Positions 1 to 13,190 of a stretch of DNA of 64,000 nucleotides are shown here, one piece after another (the first letter of the stretch is position 1; every line of letters begins with the position of its first letter). The DNA comes from a virus, in IMG/VR virus record IMGVR_UViG_3300009181_000063, positions 7,406 through 71,405 of that record; one strand, 5' to 3'. The translations under genes and the position numbers were made by a program. The notes below the pieces were generated by a model. That model was given only the letters and a program-made list of their open reading frames with translations. It made no database searches and was not told the origin of the DNA.

Positions 1-1
1 C

Positions 2-115
2 GACCGAGTTTACAAGGCAGGTTGGGCAACTGACGCAATGGCAACAATGCGCACCGAATTGCACCCGAAGGTAGTTGCAACCTTCGAAGTGGAAGAAGAG
101 TTGGCTATCGCATAG
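2..115 (+). CDS. 3' end of hypothetical protein (truncated by window edge)
   Basis: Open frame DRVYKAGWATDAM...EEELAIA ending TAG at 113-115, followed by a terminator. Confidence 0.5.
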   Translation, partial: DRVYKAGWATDAMATMRTELHPKVVATFEVEEELAIA

Positions 116-127
116 CCAGCCCCAATG

Positions 128-160
128 GAAAGCCCTCGGCAGAGATGTCGGGGGTTTTTC
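128..160 (+). terminator. Intrinsic terminator
   Basis: GAAAGCCCTCGGCA-GAGA-TGTCGGGGGTTTTTC hairpin with T-run. Confidence 0.7.
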
Positions 161-233
161 CATGCCCGGATCCTGGAGCTCGTTTTTTTAGGGGATGCCA
201 AAATACTATTTTGCCCAAAGCCTCAATGCCAAT

Positions 234-396
234 TGTTTGTGTTGGACACCCACCCTCCCAGTGTCCTATCCCTAAAGGGATCGGGAGGAGAGAGATGATG
301 TGATGTAGATAACAACAAAGGGCATTAGTGCGATTGGCGAGAGATGAGAAGGTTCTCTTAGTTGAGGCGAACGACCTCAGCGACAGGGGCTAAGAA
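234..396 (+). repeat. Cassette header R1 (composite repeat/promoter)
   Basis: TGTTTGTGTTG 234-244; CCCACCCTCCC 249-259; box TGTGATGTAGATAACA 299-314; -35 TTAGTG 325-330; -10 GAAGGT 348-353; hairpin GTTGAGG/CCTCAGC from 361; GGGGCTAAG before ATG 397. Confidence 0.85.
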
Positions 397-663
397 ATGA
401 ACGAACAAAACGCAATGAAAGTGTTTGACCTTATTAGCAAGACTGGTAATGAGGAATTGACTTCAGAGGAAGTTAGTTTTCTCAACAACAACCTTGCGCC
501 TTTCACCTCAGTTCTAATTGAGGCAGGGGTTCATACAATGACCAATGCGGGAATGGATAAAGAGGAAGCACTCTCTATCTTGGAATTGCTCGCAATGGTA
601 TCTCGTATGGCTGGTGCGTCAAACTTCGTTGATTTCGTCAATGTAAAACAAATGGAGGGCTAG
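397..663 (+). CDS. Hypothetical protein (cassette 1)
   Basis: 88-aa ORF directly after header R1. Confidence 0.8.
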   Translation: MNEQNAMKVFDLISKTGNEELTSEEVSFLNNNLAPFTSVLIEAGVHTMTNAGMDKEEALSILELLAMVSRMAGASNFVDFVNVKQMEG

Positions 664-667
664 ACAA

Positions 668-1087
668 ATGGCATCAAAAGCAATAACTGTAAAAGTTCCA
701 ACGGCAAAAGTAATAACTGCTCTACAAGCAAAGTTGGAAAAGATTGAGTTGGATTTTGCTTCTCAAGAGTCCAATGATGCTCAATACCAAAACGCTATGG
801 AAGCGTGGCGCAAGGAAATTGGAAAGTGGGCTATTGACCGCTTCTCAAAGGCTTCTAACATCAGAACCAATTATCGGGAGTGGAACAAGACTCTCAATGT
901 TGATTTTGACATCACAGTTGATGAGAAAGAGTTTCCAAAAGAACCAGTGCGAGAGCACGACAAAATCCATCTTCACGAATACAAAGAGATGAAAGAGGAC
1001 ATTACAAATGCCCTTAGCATCTTGCGTATGACTGAGGAAGAAGTAGTAAATGCCTCAACTATGAAATCCATAGCAAGGTATCTATAA
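668..1087 (+). CDS. Hypothetical protein (cassette 1)
   Basis: 139-aa ORF, GAGGGCTAG upstream, terminator downstream. Confidence 0.85.
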   Translation: MASKAITVKVPTAKVITALQAKLEKIELDFASQESNDAQYQNAMEAWRKEIGKWAIDRFSKASNIRTNYREWNKTLNVDFDITVDEKEFPKEPVREHDKIHLHEYKEMKEDITNALSILRMTEEEVVNASTMKSIARYL

Positions 1088-1098
1088 GAGAAGCGACC

Positions 1099-1130
1099 GG
1101 CTGCTCTGGGCTTCGGCTCAGAGCGGCGCG
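1099..1130 (+). terminator. GC-rich hairpin closing cassette 1
   Basis: GCTGCTCTGGGC-TTCG-GCTCAGAGCGGC stem with UUCG tetraloop. Confidence 0.65.
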
Positions 1131-1142
1131 GGCCGCGCAAAA

Positions 1143-1301
1143 TGTTTGTGTTGGATCCCACCCTCCCTGATCCTTTCCCTTACAGGGAAGGTAAGAGAGA
1201 GATGTGACGCACATCACAGCAAAGCCTATTAGCGCTGGGGGATAGCGGGCTTATTGTTCAGTTATTAGAGAAGCACAGTATCTAATGGAATGGGGCTAGA
1301 C
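1143..1301 (+). repeat. Cassette header R2
   Basis: TGTTTGTGTTG 1143-1153; CCCACCCTCCC 1157-1167; TGTGACGCACATCACA 1203-1218; TTAGCG 1229-1234; TATTGT 1252-1257; ATTAGA/TCTAAT hairpin from 1264; GGGGCTAGAC before ATG 1302. Confidence 0.9.
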
Positions 1302-1553
1302 ATGGCAGATGATTTTTGGAAGCGTTACTACGGTTCATTCGTAGGCGCTCGCATCCTATCATTCGAGGGTATGAATACCGAGGATGATTTAGGCGACGGG
1401 TTCCCTGAATTTACCGTTCAATTCGCAAATGGTGAGATTGGACTAATCTCAGTATCACAAGACCCCGAGGGTAATGGCGGAGGATTCTTGTTCGGATTGG
1501 CATTACCTGCGGAGCATCCGCAAGGTGGAGAGATGAGGACACTCAATGCTTGA
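1302..1553 (+). CDS. Hypothetical protein (cassette 2)
   Basis: Track ORF 1290-1553; start moved to ATG 1302 behind the GGGGCTAG motif. Confidence 0.75.
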   Translation: MADDFWKRYYGSFVGARILSFEGMNTEDDLGDGFPEFTVQFANGEIGLISVSQDPEGNGGGFLFGLALPAEHPQGGEMRTLNA

Positions 1554-1656
1554 TGAATACAGCGATGATGAACTAATCGAAGTGCTCATTGCACGTGGGT
1601 GCTACGACATTGACAATGAAGGTCAAGCGATTATTTACACGGGGGTGAAGGTATGA
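1546..1656 (+). CDS. Small hypothetical protein (36 aa)
   Basis: MLDEYSDDELIEVLIARGCYDIDNEGQAIIYTGVKV; overlaps both neighbours' ends. Confidence 0.6.
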   Translation: MLDEYSDDELIEVLIARGCYDIDNEGQAIIYTGVKV

Positions 1657-1835
1657 GTAGATTAGAGGTAGGTGATACCTACACTACGCAAAAGACTGGT
1701 GTGACTGGCGTAATCATGGAGATTGTGCCAAATGACACGGGCTCCACTAGATTGAAGTTGTTGACCGCGGATCTCGTGATTCGTTGGACGACATACGTTC
1801 CTGAGAGACTGGGGCAGGTAAAGGTTTCTCGTTAG
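1653..1835 (+). CDS. Small beta-barrel-like protein, paralog of 17956-18159
   Basis: GDTYTTQKTGVTGVIMEIVPNDTGSTRLKL...RWTT aligns by eye with GDWYTTHSSGVSGRIQEIVPNKTGTSRVRL...RWTT. Confidence 0.8.
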   Translation: MSRLEVGDTYTTQKTGVTGVIMEIVPNDTGSTRLKLLTADLVIRWTTYVPERLGQVKVSR

Positions 1836-1856
1836 CCCCACTAAAGAGAAAGTGCT

Positions 1857-1980
1857 GGGTCACACTATAAAATGACCCTATAAATTTAGCTAGGCGAGTC
1901 AAAGCGCTTCACTTCCTTTCTTGCCAAGCGTATCCAGGATCCGGACTGTTCACCGGGGAGATATTGCTGCTCGCCTAGCT
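1857..1980 (+). ncRNA. Candidate structured non-coding RNA
   Basis: GGGTCA/TGACCC hairpin 1857-1878; perfect 11-bp stem AGCTAGGCGAG (1888-1898)/CTCGCCTAGCT (1970-1980) enclosing two inner hairpins. Confidence 0.4.
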
Positions 1981-2006
1981 GCTCCACTTTCGGCCGCTCG
2001 CAAAAA

Positions 2007-2172
2007 GTTTGTGTTGGCCCACCCTCCCCATTAGGGAATTATTATGAGAGAAGCTCAGCTACCGGGGATCCAGGTGTGACGAGCATCACAGCAAAGCCTC
2101 TTCGCCGTAGGGGAGAGATAAGAGATAGTTCTACTACTAGCAAATCGCTAGTGATTGAGAAAGGGGCTAGAC
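2007..2172 (+). repeat. Cassette header R3
   Basis: GTTTGTGTTG 2007-2016; CCCACCCTCCCC 2018-2029; TGTGACGAGCATCACA 2075-2090; TTCGCC 2101-2106; GATAGT 2124-2129; ACTAGC/GCTAGT hairpin from 2136; GGGGCTAGAC before GTG 2173. Confidence 0.88.
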
Positions 2173-2730
2173 GTGGGTTACTACGTTTCGTTGCATTCAT
2201 CAGATTGGGAGATTACAGAATCTCCTGAGTTACTGGCAGTTCTAAAAGAAATGCCTACACGGTTCCATGCTATCAAGCGTGGCGGTTCATCTAATGGTGA
2301 ATCATGGTTCTCATGGGTAAATGATGAGGACTTCGTCAAAGCGACTACATGCGAAGAGATTATCAACGCGTTTGGTTTCGAGACATCAGAATCACAAGGC
2401 GTTGTATCTATAGATGGATACAACAACAAGACTGGACAAGAAGACGTCCTACTCGCAGTCCTTGCACCATTCGTTACAGAAGGTGCAGAAATGGAATGGA
2501 GTGGCGAAGAAGGCGAGCGCTGGCTCTACCTTGTCAAAGACGGCAAGTTATTTGTATCAGGTGAAACGCGTAATTGGGATGAGCCTGAGCCATACAAGTA
2601 TCTTCACTACGATTTCCACACGGATGCAGATGGCAAAATGGTTACTGACACCAAGGTCATTGACATCTATGCGCCAATGCCAGAAGACTTAGTAAGTCGC
2701 TGGGATAAGAAGAAGAAGGTCGAAGCCTAA
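2173..2730 (+). CDS. Hypothetical protein (cassette 3)
   Basis: Track ORF 2155-2730; start moved to GTG 2173 after GGGGCTAG. Confidence 0.8.
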   Translation: MGYYVSLHSSDWEITESPELLAVLKEMPTRFHAIKRGGSSNGESWFSWVNDEDFVKATTCEEIINAFGFETSESQGVVSIDGYNNKTGQEDVLLAVLAPFVTEGAEMEWSGEEGERWLYLVKDGKLFVSGETRNWDEPEPYKYLHYDFHTDADGKMVTDTKVIDIYAPMPEDLVSRWDKKKKVEA

Positions 2731-2740
2731 GAAGTAGAAG

Positions 2741-2773
2741 AAGCCCCTCAGCCAAAAGCTGGGGGGTTTTTTC
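2741..2773 (+). terminator. Intrinsic terminator
   Basis: AAGCCCCTCAGC-CAAAA-GCTGGGGGGTTTTTT. Confidence 0.75.
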
Positions 2774-2845
2774 ATACCAGGATCCAGCTGCTCGATCGCG
2801 CCGGTAAATTTAGGGGTGCCAAATGTTATTTCCCAAAGCCTAATT

Positions 2846-3032
2846 TGTTTGTGTTGAACAGCCCTCCCACCCTGTTTAACCCTTTCAGGGAATGGGTAGG
2901 AGAGAGATAGCTAGCTAGCTGCTCGGCCGGTGTGATGCAGATAACACCAAAGCCTATTAGCGAGAGAGACACGTGGGCATATGTTTATACCAGTGAGCAA
3001 CACCGCTTACTAAATAGTGAAGGGCTAGGAAC
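2846..3032 (+). repeat. Cassette header R4
   Basis: TGTTTGTGTTG 2846-2856; CCCTCCCACCC 2862-2872; TGTGATGCAGATAACA 2931-2946; TTAGCG 2957-2962; TATGTT 2980-2985; AGTGAGC/GCTTACT hairpin from 2992; AGGGCTAG before GTG 3033. Confidence 0.88.
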
Positions 3033-3278
3033 GTGAGACCACTATCTCAAATTGCTCAGGACATCGAGTCCGAGTGCGGTACCAAGGATTGGTACGTATA
3101 TGCAGAAGCATATGTGACACCAATGAAATCGCTTACATCTTTAAGCGATACATATGGCGCTGATAGCGCTGAATCTATAGTGCTCTACGCACTATCTAAT
3201 CTCACCTCATGGCGAGGAGAGAGAGCCCGCAGTATCAAGGCGGAGCTCAACGGGATGCTCAAGGGGGTGAGTGCATGA
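3033..3278 (+). CDS. Hypothetical protein (cassette 4)
   Basis: 81-aa ORF after header R4. Confidence 0.8.
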   Translation: MRPLSQIAQDIESECGTKDWYVYAEAYVTPMKSLTSLSDTYGADSAESIVLYALSNLTSWRGERARSIKAELNGMLKGVSA

Positions 3279-3733
3279 GCGTCGATACATATAACCCGAA
3301 TGCGCTAGTTACTTATAAAAAGATAGCTGGCACCTATGCTGAACCAGAAGCACCAGAATACATTACCGACAAGGTAGTGGACCTCGAGTGGACGCTGCAC
3401 CAAGGGCGCGAAGCTCGCACCGAAGCTCAAAAGCTCCGGGCCACAATAGCTTCGATCCAGGAGCACATGACCCGCAACGATTGGTATAACCCGAATACAG
3501 AAGCATCGGAGATCCTGGCTGCTCTGCAGGAGATCCTGGGTTACGAACCAAAAGCTGAAATTCGGATCACAGCTGTAATTGAAGTAGAGGTTACGGTTGA
3601 GCTCAACATGGATGAAGTAGAAGATTTCGATGCAGAGACCTGGATCAGTGATTGGGTCTCAGTAGATACCAGCTCGGGAGATTCGAGCTGTGATAGCTGG
3701 GCAGTTAGCTCAGCTGATTGGGAAGATGCCTGA
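3275..3733 (+). CDS. Hypothetical acidic protein (cassette 4)
   Basis: Track ORF 3209-3733; ATGA-coupled start at 3275. Confidence 0.8.
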   Translation: MSVDTYNPNALVTYKKIAGTYAEPEAPEYITDKVVDLEWTLHQGREARTEAQKLRATIASIQEHMTRNDWYNPNTEASEILAALQEILGYEPKAEIRITAVIEVEVTVELNMDEVEDFDAETWISDWVSVDTSSGDSSCDSWAVSSADWEDA

Positions 3734-3905
3734 CGCATTAAGCATCGTGGGACGGCTGCTGGTCGAAGGGTCAGCAGCCTACCTAGATGCTAAAACAATC
3801 GATGAAGAGAATGGATATTCAGATGCTATGGAATCCATGGAGAGAAAGTACTGGGAAGGGTACACAGATGCTCTCTATGAATTGGAAGCTCTGATTAATA
3901 AATAG
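3726..3905 (+). CDS. Hypothetical protein (cassette 4)
   Basis: Track ORF 3690-3905; likely ATG 3726. Confidence 0.65.
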   Translation: MPDALSIVGRLLVEGSAAYLDAKTIDEENGYSDAMESMERKYWEGYTDALYELEALINK

Positions 3906-3909
3906 CCCG

Positions 3910-3948
3910 GTGCGATCCTGGCGGCTTCGGCCGCTGGGGTTGCGCTTT
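3910..3948 (+). terminator. Hairpin closing cassette 4
   Basis: GCGATCCTGGCGGC-TTCG-GCCGCTGGGGTTGC followed by T-rich sequence. Confidence 0.65.
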
Positions 3949-4103
3949 GTTTGTGTTGAATGCCCACCCACCCATTCACCCTTCGGGTTATTTTAAGAGA
4001 GAGCTCGCTCCTGGCGTGTGACGTACATCACATCAAAGCCTATTGGGGAGAGAGGTGCCATAAGGTTAAATATGCATTACATCAACGACATGGAGGCTAG
4101 TTC
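3948..4103 (+). repeat. Cassette header R5
   Basis: TGTTTGTGTTG 3948-3958; CCCACCCACCC 3963-3973; TGTGACGTACATCACA 4017-4032; CAAAGCCTATT; GGAGGCTAG before ATG 4104; -10 spacing less clean. Confidence 0.85.
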
Positions 4104-4805
4104 ATGGAAAAGTTAAAGCGTAGTAAGGACCGCAAGGTAGCTAATTCTCTCACCGCATCGGGCGGCGTTAGAATCGCTAATTCTTTCGGTCTACCGGCGG
4201 GCAAGGCATATTCATGCCCTAGCGCCACTAGTATATGCACACGCATATGTTATGCGGGCAAGCTAGAGAAGATTTACAAGGGTGTTAAGGCTAATCTCAT
4301 TCACAATTGGGATTTATTGAGAGATGCCGATCATGACACTATGGAAGCACTATTAGAAGAGATGATTGCAGACTTTCGCAAGGATTGTGAGAAATGGGAT
4401 GCGCCTAAAGAATTCCGTATCCATTGGGACGGGGATTTCTTTAAGCCAGACTACGCATTCGCATGGAAGCACGTTATTTTAAATAACCCGGATATTCTAT
4501 TCTGGGCATATACACGTGTAGAATCTGCAGCGTACATGCTCAAGGGCATGGATAACCTGGCGTTATATTTCTCCGCCGATACGGAGAATATGGAGGCGGC
4601 TAAGCGCTTAAGCGCACACGGTATCAAGCTCGCCGGGTTACATGAGACATTCTCTCAAGCTAAGGACATGCTCATGTCATTAGGTGAGAGAGGGGCTAAG
4701 TGCCCGGAACAACGTAAGCAAATTCCACTAGAGGGCGCATGCGTAGCATGCAGAATATGCCTAAAGGCGGATGCAAATATTACATTCTCAATAAGTAAGA
4801 GATAA
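4104..4805 (+). CDS. Gp88-like protein (Cys-rich, radical-SAM-like phage family)
   Basis: FGLPAG..CPSATSICTRICYAGK, FRIHWDGDF, FWAYTR, C-terminal CP...CVACRIC. Confidence 0.75.
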   Translation: MEKLKRSKDRKVANSLTASGGVRIANSFGLPAGKAYSCPSATSICTRICYAGKLEKIYKGVKANLIHNWDLLRDADHDTMEALLEEMIADFRKDCEKWDAPKEFRIHWDGDFFKPDYAFAWKHVILNNPDILFWAYTRVESAAYMLKGMDNLALYFSADTENMEAAKRLSAHGIKLAGLHETFSQAKDMLMSLGERGAKCPEQRKQIPLEGACVACRICLKADANITFSISKR

Positions 4806-4815
4806 GGGGATAAAA

Positions 4816-5097
4816 ATGGGACGTAATCTATCAATGGAGCTAGCTGGAGGATTGGGAGACCTATCCTTGCAGCACCAGCTCAAGATTCAATTGCAGAATA
4901 ATCACTACCCGCCAGTGCCTACGTCCATGGTATTCCCATGCATCGCGGCAATTACGGCCGTTAATGAGGAGGATCCTGGCAAGCTCATCGAATTACCGGA
5001 GGGCGTGCTATGGAGAGGGAAGACATCCGCGCCAGCGAGCGCGATAGTAGAGGCGCATCACCTTGATGCATGGTTAGATGGAGATGACTATGAGTAA
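4816..5097 (+). CDS. Hypothetical protein
   Basis: 93-aa ORF with AAGGGGA upstream. Confidence 0.8.
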   Translation: MGRNLSMELAGGLGDLSLQHQLKIQLQNNHYPPVPTSMVFPCIAAITAVNEEDPGKLIELPEGVLWRGKTSAPASAIVEAHHLDAWLDGDDYE

Positions 5098-5185
5098 TAC
5101 ATTCCTTGATTTGATGGACCAGATCCTAAAGGAGGGCCTGGCCGCCATCGATGCCCTAGATGAGGATGATCTAGAAGAAGAATAG
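5090..5185 (+). CDS. Small acidic peptide (31 aa)
   Basis: MSNTFLDLMDQILKEGLAAIDALDEDDLEEE, coupled to the upstream gene. Confidence 0.5.
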   Translation: MSNTFLDLMDQILKEGLAAIDALDEDDLEEE

Positions 5186-5219
5186 AGTTGCTCCCGGTTC
5201 TTGCCCGGTCGAGCACACG

Positions 5220-5266
5220 CTCCCAGCTGCTGCTAGCCCGGTAGCTGGGAGTTTTTCTTTTTTTAT
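5220..5266 (+). terminator. Intrinsic terminator
   Basis: CTCCCAGCTGC...GTAGCTGGGAG followed by a long T-run. Confidence 0.75.
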
Positions 5267-5296
5267 GGTTGTTTTTTTAGCCTACACCCATCCAAA

Positions 5297-5402
5297 TGTT
5301 TGTGTTGACCCACCCTCCCCTTATCCCTTCGGGATAGGGTAAGAGAGAGAGGCTGTGACGTAAGTCACATGTGACATTACTCACGCAGTGATGTTCATCA
5401 CA
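5297..5402 (+). repeat. Header R6 with three tandem CRP-type boxes
   Basis: TGTTTGTGTTG 5297-5307; CCCACCCTCCCC 5309-5320; boxes 5354-5369, 5370-5385, 5387-5402. Confidence 0.85.
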
Positions 5403-5588
5403 GTAGAGAGAGTTGAGTCGGGCCGGCTCAACTTTGCTGAGTCCAGCCCATTCAAGCTAATTCCACCGGGAATTTGCGATCTCGAGAGAGATGAGAGAGA
5501 ATGAGCTGAAGAGAGAGAGAAGGAGAGAGAGAGAGAGCCAAGCTAAGTAGCCGACATTAAATGTCGACAAATCGACTGATTAGGCTAC

Positions 5589-5604
5589 TGTGAGCCACAT
5601 CACA
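5589..5604. promoter_or_regulatory. CRP-type box
   Basis: TGTGAGCCACATCACA, perfect TGTGA-N6-TCACA. Confidence 0.7.
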
Positions 5605-5819
5605 GGACTCAGCAGTTATGCCACCAGCTCTACAGCCTGTTCAGCCTGAACATATGCGTATATGTGAGAGATATCGCTTGAATAGGCTGAATATGCGATC
5701 TCAGCCCGGTAGAGAATAAAGAAGCAGAGATAGCAAGCCAGGATCCATATGATTCTCTCTCTCATATGCTCTCTCTAGTAGAACAAGGAGAAGTAAATCT
5801 ATTTCGGGCCCATCCGCCA

Positions 5820-5881
5820 CGTGATGCAGGTCACAGCAAAGGTACTTAGCCATAGCGCCATCAAGCTCTAATGTTCTCTAT
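5820..5881 (+). promoter_or_regulatory. Box-linked promoter driving the 5.9-9.5 kb operon
   Basis: CGTGATGCAGGTCACA 5820-5835, TTAGCC 5846-5851, 17 nt, TAATGT 5869-5874; same spacing as R1-R4. Confidence 0.8.
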
Positions 5882-5898
5882 ATCAAGCAAACAACGAA

Positions 5899-6126
5899 AT
5901 GGAGCAAAAAATGATGGATTACCACAAGGCTGAAGAGGACAAGTACGACGCAGAACGTGACGTTGCTTTCCACGCAATTATGCAATTGGTTCGTGACTCA
6001 CTCACAACCAAGCAACAGGAAGAACTTATCAAGTTATACGTAGATGCCACATTTGCAAGTTATTGGGCTGGCTGGCATGGTCATGGCTATGCCATTGAGA
6101 AGGTCGAAAAGAAGGTGAGCGCATGA
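5899..6126 (+). CDS. Hypothetical protein
   Basis: 75-aa ORF (start may be ATG 5911 after GGAG). Confidence 0.7.
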   Translation: MEQKMMDYHKAEEDKYDAERDVAFHAIMQLVRDSLTTKQQEELIKLYVDATFASYWAGWHGHGYAIEKVEKKVSA

Positions 6127-6263
6127 ACGATTCAATTAGCTGGGGCGAGTTAGCCGAACTCACCCACGAGTCACAGGTCGAGCGATTTGGCTTCTGTTCT
6201 TGTGAGGATCTTGAACCTCATGAGTATCCCTATCCATCATGCCTAACAAGGTTGATTCCATGA
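6123..6263 (+). CDS. Small hypothetical protein (46 aa)
   Basis: MNDSISWGELAELTHESQVERFGFCSCED...; ATGA overlaps on both sides. Confidence 0.65.
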   Translation: MNDSISWGELAELTHESQVERFGFCSCEDLEPHEYPYPSCLTRLIP

Positions 6264-6517
6264 GTCGCGTTATTAGGTATGACAGTAATGGCGAACAGTT
6301 TTTGGGCGATCCGCCATCGCTGGCAGAAGTCATGGCTGATGTAGATGACCTAAGAGAAGGTAAGATTCCAGCAGGTGAACTGCATGGTCGTGTATTAGAC
6401 ATTGTTGGGTCAATTCGTGACCTTGATGGTGAACTCTATTCAGACGAACAATGCCTATGGATGATTCACGATGTTATTAACCACTGGTCAGAACTAGCAG
6501 ATGAAGGGAGATTTTGA
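6260..6517 (+). CDS. Hypothetical protein
   Basis: Track ORF 6239-6517; coupled start at 6260. Confidence 0.7.
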   Translation: MSRVIRYDSNGEQFLGDPPSLAEVMADVDDLREGKIPAGELHGRVLDIVGSIRDLDGELYSDEQCLWMIHDVINHWSELADEGRF

Positions 6518-6660
6518 TGGACTTTGAGAATGTTATACCTATTGAGTCTAAGCCGAAGGTGTATTCAAAATTTTCGGACAAAAATACAAGAGAGCAGATA
6601 TTGCAATCATTGCAAGATGAAGGACGACTTCATATCATCAAAGTAGGGGAGGATGAATGA
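6517..6660 (+). CDS. Small hypothetical protein (47 aa)
   Basis: MDFENVIPIESKPKVY...; TGATG and ATGA overlaps fill the gap. Confidence 0.6.
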   Translation: MDFENVIPIESKPKVYSKFSDKNTREQILQSLQDEGRLHIIKVGEDE

Positions 6661-6884
6661 AGATTTCAACTAAAGATGCAATTATGATCCATATGCTTAA
6701 AACAGGTAATTTTGAAGATGCAACGCTAACCGTCAAAGGTTTGGTGGGCGCTAACCTCGTGGCAGCACGGGTTGCGTTACAAGAGTTACCTAAACCATTG
6801 ACACAAGAGGATATAGATAGTGTTCTTGCGTTCATTGTTGAGGCGGAAGCCACCCTCGAGTATCTAGGAGATGTGGAGGATTAA
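6657..6884 (+). CDS. Hypothetical protein
   Basis: 75-aa ORF with GGGGAGG SD. Confidence 0.75.
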   Translation: MKISTKDAIMIHMLKTGNFEDATLTVKGLVGANLVAARVALQELPKPLTQEDIDSVLAFIVEAEATLEYLGDVED

Positions 6885-6888
6885 TTGA

Positions 6889-7179
6889 ATGGCAGTAAAA
6901 GCATATGAAAACCTCAAACCAACTGCGGATTTATGGGAATGGCAAAATCAAGGTAATTGCGTAGGCAAGGATCCTGAGATGTTCTTTTTAGAGCATAACA
7001 TGCGTGACTCCATGAAGCGCAAGAAAGAAACAGAAGCAAAAGCTGTGTGCAAAGGTTGCCCGGTAATTGCTAAATGTTTAAATCACGCGTTAAGTGTCCC
7101 TGAAGCCTATGGCGTATGGGGTGGCTTGAGTGCTGATGAAAGGTTTTATTACAACACCAAGAGAAGGGTAAACGCATGA
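6889..7179 (+). CDS. whiB: WhiB family transcription factor
   Basis: Four Cys (C..DPEMFF...AKAVCKGCPVIAKC) and GVWGGLS turn. Confidence 0.95.
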   Translation: MAVKAYENLKPTADLWEWQNQGNCVGKDPEMFFLEHNMRDSMKRKKETEAKAVCKGCPVIAKCLNHALSVPEAYGVWGGLSADERFYYNTKRRVNA

Positions 7180-7910
7180 AGGCTGTATCGCTGTTTGCTG
7201 GTGTAGGTGGATTTGATTTAGCGTTGGAGAATGCTGGTGTATCAGTAGTTGCTTCATGTGAAATCGATAAACACGCACGAGCTGTGCTTGCAAAACAATT
7301 TCCAAACTCAACACTAATCAACGATGTAAAGGATGTAACAGGTGATCAACTTAGAAAACTCGGATTCAACGGTAGTGAAGGAATTATTGTCGGAGGATTT
7401 CCATGCCAGGATCTGTCCGTTGCGGGAAAGCGAGCAGGACTTGCTGGCTCTCGAAGTGGACTCTTCTGGGAAATCTGTCGCATCCTCGAAGAAACGAAAA
7501 CTAAATGGTTCGTCCTCGAAAACGTCCCCGGTTTGCTGTCATCTAACGACGGAGCAGACATGGGCACCGTCCTCCAAGCGTTGGCTGAGCGCGGGTATGG
7601 GGTCGCATACAGGATTCTTGACGCTCAGCACTTCGGAGTCGCCCAAAGAAGGCGTCGAGTCTTCATTGTTGGATGTCTTGGAGACAACGGGAGCGCACCT
7701 GCAGAAGTACTTGCTCTCATCGAGGGCATGCGAGGGCATCTTGAGACGAGCGACAAAAAGAGGAAAGTCATTGCCAGCGCTACTCCACTCAGCACTCGAG
7801 CGGGGGATGGAAGAAAAGTAGCTAACGCTATTCCAGCAGAGATTTACCATCATGCAACAGTAGTCAACCAAGATGTGGACAGTGGTCACCTTGTGGTTCA
7901 TCAAGAGTAG
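7176..7910 (+). CDS. C5-cytosine DNA methyltransferase, N-terminal catalytic part (motifs I-VIII)
   Basis: SLFAGVGG (I), GGFPCQDLS (IV), ENVPG (VI), QRRRRVF (VIII); lacks motif X. Confidence 0.92.
   Translation: MKAVSLFAGVGGFDLALENAGVSVVASCEIDKHARAVLAKQFPNSTLINDVKDVTGDQLRKLGFNGSEGIIVGGFPCQDLSVAGKRAGLAGSRSGLFWEICRILEETKTKWFVLENVPGLLSSNDGADMGTVLQALAERGYGVAYRILDAQHFGVAQRRRRVFIVGCLGDNGSAPAEVLALIEGMRGHLETSDKKRKVIASATPLSTRAGDGRKVANAIPAEIYHHATVVNQDVDSGHLVVHQE
7342..7821 (+). CDS. Nested alternative-frame ORF, putative methyltransferase beta polypeptide (M.EcoHK31I-like)
   Basis: Long open +1 frame inside the MTase gene ending SESPKEGVESSLLDVLET...KYLLSSRACEGILRRATKRGKSLPALLHSAL; true start uncertain. 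Confidence 0.6.
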   Translation: MINLENSDSTVVKELLSEDFHARICPLRESEQDLLALEVDSSGKSVASSKKRKLNGSSSKTSPVCCHLTTEQTWAPSSKRWLSAGMGSHTGFLTLSTSESPKEGVESSLLDVLETTGAHLQKYLLSSRACEGILRRATKRGKSLPALLHSALERGMEEK

Positions 7911-8640
7911 GAGAGCACAGACTGTGGATGATTTTGAGACATGGGTAGATGGAGAAGTTACTCCAACACTCAACGCGTTTGATAACAACGGGGACACTCG
8001 TGCAACGGTATTGATCTTCTATGGTAATCGAGTCGATGACATTCGTATTCAAGGAGGAGTAATCAATACACTACAAGCACGTATGGGAACTGGTGGAAAC
8101 AATATGCCAATGCTGGCGTATCCAATACAAGATGGGCGTGATATGGAAAAGAAACAGAACGGTTTAGGTGTAGGTGACGAAAATGATCCTTCATACACAC
8201 TAGATAGAACTGGTGGTCAGGCTGTTGCTTATCCAATTCAAGGCACAGTAATTGGTCGTAGTGATACAGCTGGACCGCAAGGAAAGGGTTACGGCAATCC
8301 TGATGATCCTATGTTTACTATCGATACAGTTGGAGGTCATGCAGTGGCACGAGTAGGTAACTTTGAGTTGTATGACTTCCCTAAAGAAGATGTGGCGCCA
8401 AGCCTTAACGCTCGACGTGCTAAAGATACGTTGGCTTATGAGGACGCTGTTGTTCGCAGACTAACTCCGTTAGAGTGCGAGCGCTTGCAGGGTTTCCCTG
8501 ATGGTTGGACTGATAGCCAGTCTGATTCACAGCGCTACAAGCAAATGGGTAATGCTGTTGCAGTACCTGTTGTTCAATGGATTATTAACCGTATCGTGGA
8601 GGTAGATAATGCAAGACCTGATGCAGAACCTAAAGAATAA
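7873..8640 (+). CDS. C5 methyltransferase C-terminal part (repeated TRD-like modules plus C-terminal motifs)
   Basis: RRLTPLECERLQGFPDGWT and RYKQMGNAVAVPV; repeated TL...GG..AVAY modules. Confidence 0.9.
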   Translation: MWTVVTLWFIKSRRAQTVDDFETWVDGEVTPTLNAFDNNGDTRATVLIFYGNRVDDIRIQGGVINTLQARMGTGGNNMPMLAYPIQDGRDMEKKQNGLGVGDENDPSYTLDRTGGQAVAYPIQGTVIGRSDTAGPQGKGYGNPDDPMFTIDTVGGHAVARVGNFELYDFPKEDVAPSLNARRAKDTLAYEDAVVRRLTPLECERLQGFPDGWTDSQSDSQRYKQMGNAVAVPVVQWIINRIVEVDNARPDAEPKE

Positions 8641-8806
8641 ATGCATTGAGATTCATAATGCTGGTGGGTTGGATGCTGTTGATCGGTATCTTGATGAACA
8701 CCACCGCCTGATTCCGTGGGAGTCGTGCTTTGAATGCGACGCCATTACCCCACGTGATCCACGAACACTTAAATGTTTTTTTGAGGAGGAATGTCATGAA
8801 ATCTAA
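8609..8806 (+). CDS. Hypothetical protein with CxxC
   Basis: 65-aa ORF, GGAGG SD. Confidence 0.6.
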   Translation: MQDLMQNLKNKCIEIHNAGGLDAVDRYLDEHHRLIPWESCFECDAITPRDPRTLKCFFEEECHEI

Positions 8807-9194
8807 TCCATACGATTTCTTTTTCTACGATAGAAACGGAAAAGGTATCACCATGAAGCAGTGGTGCGTTGAGTCCAGTAGCAAGTATGCTTTCAGAAAG
8901 GAAGTAACTGTTAATGGATTAAGGATTCTTACTAAGTGGACTGGTGTTGACGCACCAGAATACGACTGGATGGTTAAGAACCAGTTCAGTATTAATAAGT
9001 GGAAGCCCAGTCACCGGGCTCGAGTCTTCGTCTCATACATATGGAATGAAGACAGCGAAATCGTAAAGTCTCAGCGTTACATTACGATTGAGCAAGCATA
9101 CGAGGGTCATCACAAGTTGGTAGCGGAAGTTGAGGCTATGCACTTTGGGGTGTACCATCAACCAGTAAACCAATTGGAGGAAGTACATGGCTAA
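8796..9194 (+). CDS. Hypothetical protein
   Basis: Track ORF 8730-9194; ATG 8796 after GAGGAGG. Confidence 0.7.
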   Translation: MKSNPYDFFFYDRNGKGITMKQWCVESSSKYAFRKEVTVNGLRILTKWTGVDAPEYDWMVKNQFSINKWKPSHRARVFVSYIWNEDSEIVKSQRYITIEQAYEGHHKLVAEVEAMHFGVYHQPVNQLEEVHG

Positions 9195-9486
9195 AAAAGT
9201 TACGCAAACTCTCAAGGCTCACCTAGCAAAGAACACCATCTTTGATAAGGGCGGGGCTTGGTTGTTGGAAATCACAATTCAAACTGAAGGTCATCAGATT
9301 TATGATCTAAACACATGCACAGCTTGGGCTAACCCATCGGCTGCTAAACGTTATCTTAAGTCGGTTGTATTGGATAACACACCACGCAAATCAATCAAGA
9401 TGGTTGTAACAAGTGGGAACCTCGACACTGGCAAGCCTCTTACTCTTGATGGCGAATTAACCTACAAGGTCGACGCAGGTCTATAA
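9187..9486 (+). CDS. Hypothetical protein
   Basis: 99-aa ORF with GGAGG SD. Confidence 0.8.
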   Translation: MAKKVTQTLKAHLAKNTIFDKGGAWLLEITIQTEGHQIYDLNTCTAWANPSAAKRYLKSVVLDNTPRKSIKMVVTSGNLDTGKPLTLDGELTYKVDAGL

Positions 9487-9487
9487 A

Positions 9488-9546
9488 CAAAATTACCCCC
9501 AGCCTTTAAAGCAAACTGTGAGTTGCTAAGGCTGGGGGTATTTTTA
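9488..9546. terminator. Bidirectional terminator between convergent arms
   Basis: TACCCCCAGCCTT...AAGGCTGGGGGTA flanked by A-run and T-run. Confidence 0.8.
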
Positions 9547-9553
9547 TGTTATT

Positions 9554-11593
9554 TTATTGATTCTCTTTAATAAGTCTTACTTCGCAAGCATCAGTTGTGC
9601 AGTACGCTTCACCGATAGCATCGGCCGCCATTCCTGCATACACTCCAGTAAAGTCAATTGGCATCAGTTTCATAGTCGCGTCGTTGAACTTTTTCTCTGT
9701 AATTTGAGTGTAAGGCATCTGCGGATAAGTCTCGTTCCCCATTGGTAGGAAGGAAACGGTTTTGAGTTGTCCGTCAAACATGTGTAGGACTGTTCCTACA
9801 TCGTCCCTTTCAGTCTCTGCATTAAATGATACGGTTACAGATACCGAGTTGTCTGACCAATGTCGTTGAGCTGTAGCAGCAAGTGACACCTTCTCATAAA
9901 TTGATACATCTTTTTCTGATCGTTTAGCTGAGGATTTGATTGGAAAGAACACCACTGACGTAGTCTTTGGTGATTCGCTTGCCTTCTCAACTCGATAGTT
10001 AGCCATCTTAAATAATGGAAGCATCGGATCCTCGTTGCTAAAACGAATAGCACGATCAAAGTACTCTCCACCCGGTGTCCAATGAACTCCCGGTGATTCT
10101 CCCGCCAGGATCGATACTGTTCCTGATGGCTTTACCGTGGTGGTCTTGATTGACTCACGGATACCTAGCCACTCTGAATATGTGGTGTCGTACTTCTTAA
10201 TGACCGCGTAGCCTTCGTCCATCCAGTTGCGAAGTATTGGCAAACCATTGATGTCTGCAAAGTTAGCAACACCTGACATTGAAGTACCAATGCGACGGTT
10301 ACGTTGCATGATGGCGTTAGTTTCTTCCCAATGTGTAGGTAGAAGCGTCACAGTCTTTGCGTATAGGTAGGCAAACTTAAGTGTGCGCTTGTAGTCCTCT
10401 AGATTTTCATGACGGTTTAGGTATGTTTCAACCAAGGTACACATCTCAAATGACTCTAGTGATTGCTCAGCACATGGGTTGTACCCAGCTACACGCCAAT
10501 CCTTATCGTTTGCTGGATCAATGAGGCGACCATACTTACGGCTTACATCCATCCAAACAACGCCCGGTTCTCCGTTGTTAGCAATACCGTCGACAATACC
10601 TGAAAGGTCAGCGCCTACGGATGCTTCGATTGAGTTGTTAGACATCCACGCCCAACCAGGGCTGGCTGGATCATATGAGTTGCGCTCTGGGAATACGGCA
10701 GCGTTCTTTAAGTTCAAGAAGTCTGGGTCGTCTAAACGACCAATAAGTAGTTCTGCTGAACGACGGACGTTTCCTGATACAACGCATACGCCAATCATGT
10801 TTCCAATGTCCGCAATATCACGACGAGTCACTGTCTGACCAGCACGACCTTTGAACAATGTATGAATATGGTTGTGAAGCTTTAAGAGGGGTTCGTGTCC
10901 TGCGGCTGTTCCACCGAAGGTTCGGATTGGCGTTCCTGCTGGGCGGATCTCGCTGTAATCAAAGCCTGCAATCTTCTGATCTGGTCGGAGGTAAGAATTG
11001 ATGACTGCTGTGAGGGACTCAACCCAGCCTTCTCTAGTGTCTGCAATGATGGTAAGTGTTTCAGGTTCTTTTGGCTCATAGATTGTAAATTCCTTGTCTG
11101 CTCCCTTATCGTCAAAGCCAACGCCCACTCCGAGCATTGAGGCTTCCATAAGAAATGCGAATGGTTTTGCTGGATCGTTTTTGGTCATTGAAGATGTGCT
11201 AACAAAAGCACAGTTCTGTAAAGCAGCGGAGTTCTTTTGCTCGTTAACAATTTGAGTGCCCATTACCCACAGCCCACGTCCCGGTGGTGACCACTTCAAA
11301 TGGAACAAACGGTCGAAGGCTTCTTTAGCTGATGCCTGAGCTTTAGCGTCTGACCAAGGGAGTCGTTGGGATTTAGCGTGATCCTTTTGAAGGGAGTACA
11401 TGCCATTGATTACTCGCTCGCATACATCTACCCAAGTCTCCTTGGTGCCGTCCTCTTTTAATCGGGAGTAAGTTCTTAAAAAAGTAATCTCTCCCACCGA
11501 GTTTCCTGCCGCATCTTTGTAACCCCAAGGAACTGTCTTACCCTTGTATACAGTTACAAACTCATCTGCTAGGCGGAAACTCAAATTCATCAT
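9554..11593 (-). CDS. nrdJ: Class II (B12-dependent, monomeric RTPR-type) ribonucleotide reductase
   Basis: PPGRGLW, LQNCAF, GNVRRSA, NPCAEQ, TTVKPSGTVS, C-terminal YCTTDAC. Confidence 0.93.
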   Translation of the reverse strand: MMNLSFRLADEFVTVYKGKTVPWGYKDAAGNSVGEITFLRTYSRLKEDGTKETWVDVCERVINGMYSLQKDHAKSQRLPWSDAKAQASAKEAFDRLFHLKWSPPGRGLWVMGTQIVNEQKNSAALQNCAFVSTSSMTKNDPAKPFAFLMEASMLGVGVGFDDKGADKEFTIYEPKEPETLTIIADTREGWVESLTAVINSYLRPDQKIAGFDYSEIRPAGTPIRTFGGTAAGHEPLLKLHNHIHTLFKGRAGQTVTRRDIADIGNMIGVCVVSGNVRRSAELLIGRLDDPDFLNLKNAAVFPERNSYDPASPGWAWMSNNSIEASVGADLSGIVDGIANNGEPGVVWMDVSRKYGRLIDPANDKDWRVAGYNPCAEQSLESFEMCTLVETYLNRHENLEDYKRTLKFAYLYAKTVTLLPTHWEETNAIMQRNRRIGTSMSGVANFADINGLPILRNWMDEGYAVIKKYDTTYSEWLGIRESIKTTTVKPSGTVSILAGESPGVHWTPGGEYFDRAIRFSNEDPMLPLFKMANYRVEKASESPKTTSVVFFPIKSSAKRSEKDVSIYEKVSLAATAQRHWSDNSVSVTVSFNAETERDDVGTVLHMFDGQLKTVSFLPMGNETYPQMPYTQITEKKFNDATMKLMPIDFTGVYAGMAADAIGEAYCTTDACEVRLIKENQ

Positions 11594-11713: not shown

Positions 11714-11730
11714 AACATATCCGATATGTT
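11714..11730. promoter_or_regulatory. 17-bp palindromic operator-like site upstream of nrdJ
   Basis: AACATATC-C-GATATGTT; reverse-complement-identical copy at 12364-12380. Confidence 0.55.
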
Positions 11731-13190
11731 TATTCTTCTATTGCTTGCTTAATTATGGTCGTGGTGTCCTCTTCGCTGATCCCACCGTTAGGTATTTCTT
11801 TTAAGATTTGAGCTTTCTCGCCAAATATTTGAGACAAAACTCCAGCGTTTCCTTGGCGCTCTACGGTCATTCTAATGAACTCTCGCGAATCGTCCAATTC
11901 TTTAGTTGTTTTAATTAATTTAAACAAACGATCAATCTCTTGGCTAACATTTGGGTCAGCGTACCCGCCGTTCATTTCTTCAGCAAATCGCATAAAAGCA
12001 ACTCTTTGCCCCTGCATTTCGATGATTGCGTTAATTAAACTCTTAAGTTGATCTTTAGTCTTTACTTCAATAGGGAGTTTAAATGCACAAGTATTTTGAG
12101 GTTTAAACGCTGGGCAATTTGATGCAATAAAGCACGTGTCGCACTGACGCAAACTTGTGTCATGTGTACGAATTACTGGAACATCTTTTAGTACGTCGTT
12201 ACCTGAATCATCTCGTTCAACAATGGTCTTTATTTCAAATCCAAAGACAGGTAAATTGCCCATTTCTTCTGGATTTCTAGGTTGAAGTTTCCGCATCTCT
12301 ACCCCCAACCTATCCGATACTGCGGGTACGTTTTCCGCATAATCTTCACCAGCTGGATCTTCAAACATATCGGATATGTTGCCCACTTTGGTTAACCTCG
12401 TCTCTAATTGGTCAAAAGACCAAACTGCTAATTTACAAAGTTCTTCTGAATCATCTCCGACTATCTTGTCAAAGTCTAAACCAGCCTTTTCGTACACGGC
12501 CTTGTGACGTGGACGAGCTTGCTCTTTCATGCTCTTTGGGTAGCGTACCAGTCTGGTTCCGTCCCAGACGATGGTTTCTCCACGAGTCATTGGCGATAGC
12601 CACGAAAGTGTTGCCGCGCTCTCCACGGGCACCTGACGCAGGTTGTCTGGTCGGGCTGTACCCAAGGCGTGGAAGCGGCTTCCTTCTGTCCTTACAAGCC
12701 TCTGTGTGACTCCTGATAGCCACGTGTGATCTTCTAGGGACTCACCGGGAAGGGCTACATCCAAGTACTTGGCGGTTAGTTCGCCTAACCCCTTTTGACC
12801 GGTTTGAGGGTTCCAGACAGGCAAGAACTTGGCTGGTGGCATTTCCGCCCAGACAGTTTCTCGTTGATCTCGAACAAAGTCAGGGCTTACTTGAAAGTGG
12901 TTAATCTCTGTGAATTGATTAAGGCGTTCAATATTGTTGACTATAAACTCTTCATAATCAGCGGCAAACTCTTCCAGCTCTGTGCGACCAATCTCTTGGG
13001 CTCTTGGTATTCCGGGGTGAACCAGAATGCTCATGCCTTCTGGAAAGTAGTTCTCTAATAAATAAATCTTGGTTTTGGGTAAGCCCCGTTTAACTAAACG
13101 CCAGTAACTTACGCCAACAGACGTGGCTCCAGCTGAGCCTAAAAGGATGCGGTTGCTAGGGACCTCTGCCCCAAGGTAGATAATCTTCAC
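11730..13190 (-). CDS. TGT/DpdA-like barrel domain (apparently degenerate) fused to a Cys4 domain
   Basis: FLPVWN, FHALG...LRQVPVESAATLSW..RGE resemble TGT-like phage proteins; CDTC...CP...C in the C-terminal part. Confidence 0.5.
   Translation of the reverse strand: MKIIYLGAEVPSNRILLGSAGATSVGVSYWRLVKRGLPKTKIYLLENYFPEGMSILVHPGIPRAQEIGRTELEEFAADYEEFIVNNIERLNQFTEINHFQVSPDFVRDQRETVWAEMPPAKFLPVWNPQTGQKGLGELTAKYLDVALPGESLEDHTWLSGVTQRLVRTEGSRFHALGTARPDNLRQVPVESAATLSWLSPMTRGETIVWDGTRLVRYPKSMKEQARPRHKAVYEKAGLDFDKIVGDDSEELCKLAVWSFDQLETRLTKVGNISDMFEDPAGEDYAENVPAVSDRLGVEMRKLQPRNPEEMGNLPVFGFEIKTIVERDDSGNDVLKDVPVIRTHDTSLRQCDTCFIASNCPAFKPQNTCAFKLPIEVKTKDQLKSLINAIIEMQGQRVAFMRFAEEMNGGYADPNVSQEIDRLFKLIKTTKELDDSREFIRMTVERQGNAGVLSQIFGEKAQILKEIPNGGISEEDTTTIIKQAIEE

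Follow-up and report, generated by a model that had tools for sequence, protein, structure and literature searches.

The DNA analysed here (the window, 64,000 nucleotides) comprises bases 7406-71405 of the 71,405-bp linear IMG/VR record IMGVR_UViG_3300009181_000063, which derives from an uncultured freshwater (lake) tailed phage, probably of Actinobacteria; window coordinates are used unless marked genome. Its early region carries seven copies (counted over the whole record) of one repeated control cassette, which separates the early gene units and whose linkers hold the clusters of short palindromes considered below. Each cassette runs from a terminator hairpin with a T-run through a first linker position (slot A), a header, a second linker position (slot B), an operator, an AAAGCCTAYT box and a leader to the gene (Table 1). 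The header consists of TTTGTGTTG, a C-rich box, a small hairpin with covarying arms and the GA-run GAGAGAGA; the AAAGCCTAYT box is conserved, and the ribosome-binding site has the form GGGGCTAGAC. Slots A and B are optional and have no fixed length or sequence. The perfect 16-bp operator TGTGA-N6-TCACA occurs five times, always in early spacers, and is absent from the other 58 kb. Terminator-like sites are in excess (18 vs 4.8 expected), and a scan for sigma-70 consensus promoters returned 7 vs 8.6 expected, none of them in cassettes; a promoter of another type, as would be expected with an actinobacterial host, may be present. A search of window 1-10000 against Rfam gave one sub-threshold match (21.3 bits vs a gathering threshold of 34.1) and none for the cassette.

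Table 1 Features of the early region and its surroundings (window coordinates unless marked genome)
Feature	Position	Strand	Remarks
Header 1	236-296	+	TTTGTGTTG, C-rich box, small hairpin, GA-run
Other headers	from ~1145, 2008, 2848, 3950, 5299		each to the end of the GA-run
Upstream header	genome 6882		before the window
Operator TGTGA-N6-TCACA, perfect	1203-1218, 2075, 4017, 5354, 5589		
Operator, imperfect	299, 2931		
Operator, relaxed GTGA-N6-TCAC	5371, 5388, 5821		
Terminator hairpin with T-run	125-163	+	containing fold z -2.4
Terminator hairpins	1093-1136, 2737-2773, 3909-3946, 5219-5252		containing folds z -3.4 to -4.6
Cluster 1	161-182		slot A filler, between terminator T-run and TTTAGGGG...GCCAAA module
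Cluster 2	2051-2074		slot B filler, between GA-run of header 3 and operator at 2075
Cluster 3	2777-2804		slot A filler, directly 3' of terminator 2737-2773
Cluster 4	2908-2930		slot B filler, cassette 4
Palindrome-purged gene units (six small coding sequences)	397-2730	+	from synonymous shuffles
Word-rich block, spacers and coding sequences	2731-6126	+	five-word set 20-24 per kb
GATCCWGG site	169-176	+	
GATCCWGG site	1934-1941	-	within large hairpin 1887-1980
GATCCWGG site	2067-2074	+	abuts operator 2075-2090
GATCCWGG site	2777-2784	-	
GATCCWGG sites, four	3454 (+), 3511 (+), 3532 (+), 3639 (-)	+ and -	span 3454-3646, inside coding sequence 3275-3733
GATCCWGG site	3914-3921	+	5' arm of terminator hairpin 3909-3946
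GATCCWGG site	4972-4979	+	coding sequence 4816-5097
GATCCWGG site	5738-5745	-	725-nt spacer free of open reading frames
GP88-family gene (PF17338)	4104-4805	+	within word-rich block 2731-6126
C5 cytosine methyltransferase	7176-7910 and 7873-8640	+	two overlapping open reading frames, different frames

Relatives of the phage supplied 90 non-redundant cassette copies. Across these, the density of five restriction-type words (GGCC, CGCG, AGCT, CCWGG and CCGG, hereafter the five-word set) reaches 4.3-4.6 per 100 nt just upstream of the header (GC content 0.58-0.60), with a second peak of 3.2 per 100 nt at +60 to +80 (GC 0.47) over a background of 1.1-1.4. Slot B is empty in most relatives, the GA-run leading straight into the operator. 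In slot B of the cassettes of loci L006, L107 and L130 the content differs: some of these relatives carry repeated TTATCCACA and TGTGGATAA words that resemble DnaA boxes after the GA-run, and others have CGACACGCC repeats or a TTCGAACA-N2-TGTTCGAA dyad there. Because slot contents vary in this way between relatives, one header is evidently combined with different protein-site modules.

All four polylinker-like strings described between the cassettes by the first-pass annotation were recovered at the positions given there, and each occupies a slot. Cluster 1 contains CCCGGATCCTGG, which matches the pattern CCNGGATCCNGG (fit at 165-176), and cluster 4 consists of a threefold tandem of AGCT/TAGC followed by CGGCCGG. 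The clusters are built from GGCC, AGCT, CGCG, CCWGG and CCGG, i.e. from words depleted elsewhere in the lineage. The densest and second densest 28-nt palindrome windows of the whole 71-kb record start at 2908 and 2785, ~100 nt apart in the single 302-nt spacer 2731-3032. With local base composition kept, the probability of reaching the observed numbers of four- and six-base palindromes was 0.025, 0.035, 0.005 and 0.0003 for clusters 1 to 4; these windows were chosen post hoc, and clusters 1 and 2 are therefore unremarkable while clusters 3 and 4 are outliers by palindrome count. The accompanying claim that the spacers are palindrome-rich holds for these two outliers but not for spacers as a class: in dinucleotide shuffles the six early spacers gave z scores of -2.7, -1.2, +0.3, +1.5, +0.5 and +0.1 for four-base palindromes, and six-base palindromes are in excess in spacer 2731-3032 only (11 vs 4.6, z 3.1). 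Base composition and terminator stems had been named as factors that could abolish the enrichment. The class-wide enrichment was indeed lost in the shuffles, but terminator stems were ruled out as the nature of the clusters, all four of which fold no better than shuffled sequence (z +1.23, -0.10, +0.54 and -1.09).

Comparison with close relatives identified the slots as joints of exchange, whose whole content is replaced while the surrounding DNA stays nearly identical. An alignment of the window with L113, a strain 96.6% identical across 1-6126, was cut at the slot-B positions and differing columns were counted per 100 nt in each segment. The count is 13.8 for segment 1201-2051 and 1.3-3.4 for the six other segments; this divergent block extends from slot B of cassette 2 to slot B of cassette 3 (cluster 2) and, since it is bounded by a slot B at both ends, the exchanged module runs from one slot B to the next. 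L113 also has an 8-nt insert in the slot B that is empty in the window at 1201, and an unrelated 11-nt filler carrying GATCCAGG in place of cluster 4. Of the 20 columns that differ in 2908-4002, 18 belong to this cluster and the other two are spread across ~1,070 nt. Contigs of public runs X3 and X4, which possibly stem from one sampling campaign, join 2906 (header end) to 299 (operator start) through 12 other letters that include GATCCTGG, and an X3 contig joins 287 to 1195 with the loss of one unit between two GA-runs. Run X9 places nine of its 13 listed changes within 100-303 at 171-182, and shows small insertions behind 2074 (2 letters) and 2793.

The contrast between spacers and coding sequences (CDS) is confined to 115-2730 and is produced by depletion in the CDS. 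Relative to synonymous shuffles, in which amino-acid sequence and codon usage were kept, CDS 397-2730 contain 39 four-base palindromes vs 86.9 ± 7.0 expected, with AGCT, ATAT, CCGG, GGCC, GTAC and TTAA entirely missing, whereas CDS 3033-6126 contain 177 vs 141.2 ± 9.0. The per-gene observed/synonymous ratios are 0.43, 0.18, 0.34, 0.62 and 0.76 in the first units and 1.26, 1.28, 1.10, 1.17 and 1.42 in the next genes, compared with 0.71-1.10 for 25 long genes in the rest of the record. The five-word set gives the same picture, at 1.7 per kb in CDS 397-2730 (3 in 1783 nt), 23.8 per kb in early spacers (49 in 2058 nt), 20.3 per kb in CDS 3033-6126 and 7.4 per kb over the remainder of the record, where no kilobase has more than 15 sites. 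Observed/expected ratios outside the early region are 0.41 for GGCC, 0.40 for CCWGG, 0.54 for CGCG, 0.67 for AGCT and 0.75 for CCGG, and GATC and GCGC are undepleted. Short-palindrome avoidance is thus found in the rest of the genome and in CDS 397-2730, but not in 2731-6126. The two-part bias is shared by L120, a relative that aligns to the window in patches of 67-81% DNA identity, with ratios of 0.49-0.62 in its upstream open reading frames (ORFs) and 1.22-1.37 in those around its GP88 homologue. The GP88 gene is the centre of the palindrome-rich block in both phages. The most avoided six-base palindrome is CCCGGG, with no copy in the whole 71.4 kb against 8.8 expected in the non-early part.

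A different kind of enrichment concerns the composite word GATCCWGG and its complement CCWGGATC. The approximate count of eleven given for the first 6 kb proved exact (7 + 4 = 11 sites). The mean in 2000 dinucleotide shuffles of that region was 0.50 and the maximum 4, so that none reached 11, and the window as a whole has 14 copies vs 2.21 ± 1.48 in its own control; the record likewise has 14, as the 7.4 kb preceding the window contain no copy. An unbiased scan of 8-mers in the first 6 kb under an order-3 Markov model ranks CCAGGATC second for over-representation (8 vs 0.21), comparable to the core words of the conserved cassette. CCWGG abuts GATC in 11 of its 14 occurrences in the first 6 kb vs 3 of 38 outside it, and the composite word is therefore genuine. 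In several spacer copies the match continues into a near-dyad around GGATCC. Otherwise the flanking positions show little bias (G at -1 and C at +8 in 13 of 30 copies each), on which ground a longer motif was dropped, and the orientation bias is not significant, with 18 of 26 copies in the sense direction (window 7/11, L120 8/10, L123 3/5; two-sided binomial P ~0.08, hand-computed).

The word is concentrated in the early regions of three relatives as well: a 6.5-kb stretch holds 11 of the 13 copies in G001, a 3.3-kb stretch six of the 10 in G002 and a 2.4-kb stretch four of the 10 in G003. The six copies of G005 are scattered, G006-G010 have 0, 0, 0, 3 and 4 unclustered copies, and G004, in which the contig stops within the early region, has none. 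A reversed-pattern control gave 0-3 per record. Most copies in L120 are not orthologous to those of the window and again lie in terminator loops or stems, slot A and slot B, although the window's CDS copy at 3532 appears, as judged by eye, to be conserved there. GATCCWGG recurs in independent slot alleles. Among 66 different operator contexts, 13 have CCWGG or CCGG at a distance of 0-3 nt on the upstream side (CCWGG in nine), the word before the operator often being GATCCWGG or GCTCCWGG. In a full-text literature search the sole match for GATCCWGG was an E. coli study, whose matched text mentions it only as an overlapping Dam/Dcm word that was counted (n = 264; PMC13490465). Two pairs of copies are spaced exactly 21 nt start to start, or two helical turns, one in a window CDS (3511/3532) and one in a spacer of L120 (reverse strand, 1775/1796). 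GATCCTGG itself has 11 copies, of which six (3511, 3914, 4972, 5738, 7406 and 10105) are followed by C. The resulting 9-mer GATCCTGGC is part of the universal 16S rRNA 5'-end primer site, an overlap that is probably a coincidence.

The early region ends with a C5 cytosine methyltransferase gene, the only DNA methyltransferase found in the record, whose two ORFs overlap by 38 nt. Positions 1-168 of PF00145 match the first ORF and positions 260-323 the second, and TIGR00675 also matches. Because the same two-frame split is kept in five relatives (L020, L122, L123, L105 and L120), the gene is probably not broken but encodes a two-subunit or frameshift-dependent enzyme. By eye, its C-terminal part contains about four repeats resembling target-recognition domains (TRDs), two of which (residues 83-157 of that part) are missing from L020 and L121; one repeat can be aligned with the TRD region of the HaeIII (GGCC) methyltransferase (E 1e-4).

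Taken together, we tentatively read the locus as a PeSL-like cassette array with hypervariable linkers and, in addition, a selected protein-recognition word; PeSL is an element of T4-type phages described below. The four polylinker-like stretches would be allelic filler in slots A and B. Those slots would lie between functional modules, from which the lack of selection on slot words would follow, and selection against restriction-type words would be absent both there and in the adjacent accessory block 3033-5097. Homologous recombination at the conserved header and operator flanks would move gene units and swap the fillers, and GATCCWGG (core GGATCC / TCCWGG, often 0-5 nt before the operator) would be the word of a candidate early-DNA-binding protein. 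Such recombination, without selection on the words between modules, is the most economical mechanism, and we propose it provisionally, with slightly less than even confidence. Several observations weigh against this interpretation. Genes 3033-5097 lie above the synonymous expectation (1.10-1.42) and are not merely neutral, as do their counterparts in L120 (1.22-1.37), whereas relaxed selection predicts otherwise. Five of the 11 GATCCWGG copies are intra-CDS, four of them in a single gene, which a linker model leaves unexplained. The sigma-70 scan gave nothing in the cassettes, and the position of the slots outside functional units is therefore an assumption. The public runs were seen as contigs, in which rare variants are dropped and phase is invisible. 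Finally, no donor with 11-mer identity in a matching arrangement was found among 199 loci, and fillers were on that count rejected as copies of other cassettes.

The rival accounts differ mainly in what they make of the restriction-type words. In one, host enzymes would cut only the linkers of the first units, which keeps the units expressible while the breaks drive cassette exchange. The near-absence of the five-word set from CDS 397-2730 compared with the spacers, the six tetramers missing from those CDS and the coincidence of exchange joints with slots would all be expected; to this extent the earlier proposal that cuts would be steered into spacers is partly supported, with clusters at exchange joints beside conserved headers and first gene units nearly word-free. 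However, CDS 3033-6126 are almost as rich in these words as the spacers, so that cuts would not be spacer-confined, and the rule fits only three of six cassette intervals. Recombination between homologous headers accounts for exchange without breaks at the words, all of which makes steering by restriction unlikely. Alternatively, the slot and island words, the CCWGG within GATCCWGG among them, could be targets of the phage C5 methyltransferase, with methylation beside the operator timing or gating early transcription. The position of the gene at the end of the early region and its TRD-like repeats, including the one similar to HaeIII, fit this idea. In addition, all four sequence sets from records that bear the methyltransferase show a depletion of AGCT, CGCG and CCWGG (observed/expected 0.42-0.67, 0.54-0.88 and 0.40-0.48, respectively) that is missing or weaker in the two sets without it (1.04-1.12, 1.01-1.08 and 0.60-0.91). 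Motif clusters occur in four of six records with the gene vs none of five without (one-sided Fisher P 0.045, hand-computed and uncorrected for relatedness among records that are interrelated and in several cases incomplete), an association that is only correlative. Against it, word-rich cassette-array islands exist in L001 (whose record is 100% complete) as well as in L044 and L053, none of these relatives having the gene, and this weakens the candidate explanation that the island is due purely to the methyltransferase; G004 and G010 carry the gene without a motif cluster, the former with its early region truncated as noted. The signature of 5-methylcytosine deamination products is also weak (GGCT 1.14-1.37, CTWGG 0.98-1.33, TGCG ~1). 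We consider it doubtful that methylation marks are the explanation.

Palindromes could also arise as repair scars, if breaks at short palindromes were filled in and the ends joined, duplicating the overhangs into new palindromes. Actinobacterial hosts possess Ku/LigD end joining, cluster 4 is a threefold tandem of a palindromic tetramer, and 8-mers made of a duplicated palindromic tetramer containing G/C number 20 in the 94 kb within ~120-130 nt of cassette anchors vs 119 in the other 2212 kb, an excess of ~4-fold; CCGGCCGG itself occurs five times near anchors and five times elsewhere. These are small numbers, the higher GC content near cassettes (0.54-0.60) alone raises the frequency of such words, and the window, L120 and L109 have slot-A inserts that look mutually homologous, hence inherited and not independent, so an origin by repair seems very unlikely. 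The simplest alternative, that the clusters are a chance product of GC-rich intergenic DNA beside terminators, draws on the unenriched spacer class, on the local P values of clusters 1 and 2, uncorrected for selection, and on the location of site 3914 and several L120 sites within terminator hairpins. It is refuted for the 8-mer, which three relatives also have in excess, as well as for clusters 3 and 4, given that the two densest palindrome windows share one spacer and that none of the four clusters folds; it stands for clusters 1 and 2 by palindrome count alone, and as a general explanation it is highly improbable. Lastly, the early words might together form an interface with modification and restriction enzymes, in which slot methylation times transcription and breaks are channelled into unit exchange. 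GATCCWGG and the CCWGG or CCGG abutting the operators would then be read by the split methyltransferase, a host nuclease or both, and the linkers would be sacrificial and recombinogenic, turning restriction into cassette shuffling; we regard this as improbable.

The closest parallel for the cassette array that we favour is PeSL (promoter-early stem-loop), a composite terminator/promoter element at which T4-type phages exchange accessory genes (Arbiol et al. 2010, PMC2839356; Comeau et al. 2014, PMC4122927). Both are repeated intergenic elements with a terminator hairpin that flank small accessory genes in a plastic early region, and in both the element contains the end points of the indels and replacements that distinguish close relatives, here with blocks and joints at 1201, 2051, 2906/299 and 287/1195. 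The window cassettes differ in lacking a recognisable sigma-70-type promoter, in adding a conserved header and the TGTGA-N6-TCACA operator, in having two length-free slots with fast-changing, palindrome-rich filler plus a separate over-represented 8-mer, and in a host that is probably an actinobacterium. Avoidance of restriction-modification recognition sites by prokaryotic viruses is described by Rusinov et al. 2018 (PMC6286503); most of the record conforms to the pattern given there in the depletion of GGCC, CCWGG, CGCG and AGCT, but avoidance is uneven here, being extreme in three early units but missing or even reversed over the 3.4 kb that follow, an unevenness conserved in L120. New are the hypervariable slots made of words that the lineage purges elsewhere, the opposite palindrome biases of neighbouring gene units, and a separate 8-mer strongly selected in the early region.

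Other known systems resemble single components of the locus. The operator matches the binding consensus of CRP/GlxR-type regulators, with five perfect matches that all lie in early spacers; in the window these sites are part of a phage cassette, frequently with CCWGG or CCGG before them, and the dyads suggest control by a host CRP-family protein or a phage mimic of it. The multispecific C5 methyltransferases of Bacillus phages SPR, phi3T, rho11s and H2 have GGCC, CCGG, CCWGG, GCNGC and GAGCTC among their targets, sets that overlap the words seen in the window. Like them, the window enzyme is phage-borne and has a long variable region apparently with several TRD-like repeats, but theirs is a single polypeptide with tandem TRDs and the window enzyme comprises two ORFs with repeats recognised by eye; we know of no report that target words of these Bacillus phages are concentrated in an early-region island. 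In T5-like phages the pre-early region is transferred in a first step, the long terminal repeat being injected first. The window shares with it a block of small, separately controlled early genes with intervening repeats and palindromes, amounting to about a tenth of the genome, but gives no evidence of injection in steps or of a terminal repeat: no end repeat was found in the linear record, whose estimated completeness is ~74%.

Further features of the early region and the record provide context. The ORF-free 725-nt stretch 5186-5910, possibly a control hub or a non-coding RNA, contains one terminator and one header, a tandem of three operator-like dyads (5354, 5371 and 5388), a long GA-repeat at ~5490-5535, two more dyads (5589 and 5821) and several CATATG words. 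In metatranscriptome run X15 two contigs start at 375 and 1280, each 22 nt before a start codon (397 and 1302), which is only a hint of short leaders, as contigs cannot show RNA ends; the RNA contigs of this run fall on CDS pieces and none on spacers, and absence from contigs is not evidence. An actinobacterial host is suggested because the record has two WhiB-family genes (6889-7179, directly upstream of the methyltransferase, and genome 31012-31248 on the minus strand), a family that in a control search matched Corynebacterium only. Recognisable genes further include a tail sheath, a family-A DNA polymerase, a helicase and a ribonucleotide reductase (9554-11593, minus strand); no tRNA genes were found. 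The reductase adjoins a queuine-tRNA-ribosyltransferase-like gene (11730-13190, minus strand; phrog_887, E 2e-49), which may encode a DpdA-type enzyme; in that case 7-deazaguanine may be present in the virion DNA, and restriction words would then matter in a different way. A tryptophan-halogenase-like gene lies among the tail-fibre genes (57770-59353, plus strand; phrog_2928, E 5e-135). Megablast of window 1-8000 against phage records returned no match and hence no close relative there, while IMG/VR holds many relatives and the stretch is also present in freshwater metagenome runs. A more distant search of phage records matched only the GP88-gene stretch, at 65-67% DNA identity, in Streptomyces phages and in mycobacteriophages (across 4091-4521 in the latter), phages whose GC content differs greatly from that of the window phage. 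For GP88 no solved relative and no annotated look-alike outside the family itself was found.

If the cassette-array interpretation is correct, cassette-mediated modular shuffling would extend from T4-type phages to abundant freshwater actinophages, and the point of exchange would be pinned to two short, length-free slots. Selection on short palindromes would also prove to differ sharply between neighbouring gene units of one phage, providing a readable record of the DNA that must survive restriction intact. The word GATCCWGG, which is ~20-fold over-represented and conserved in the class of its positions but not in its sequence context, offers a testable handle that should lead to a protein acting specifically on early phage DNA.

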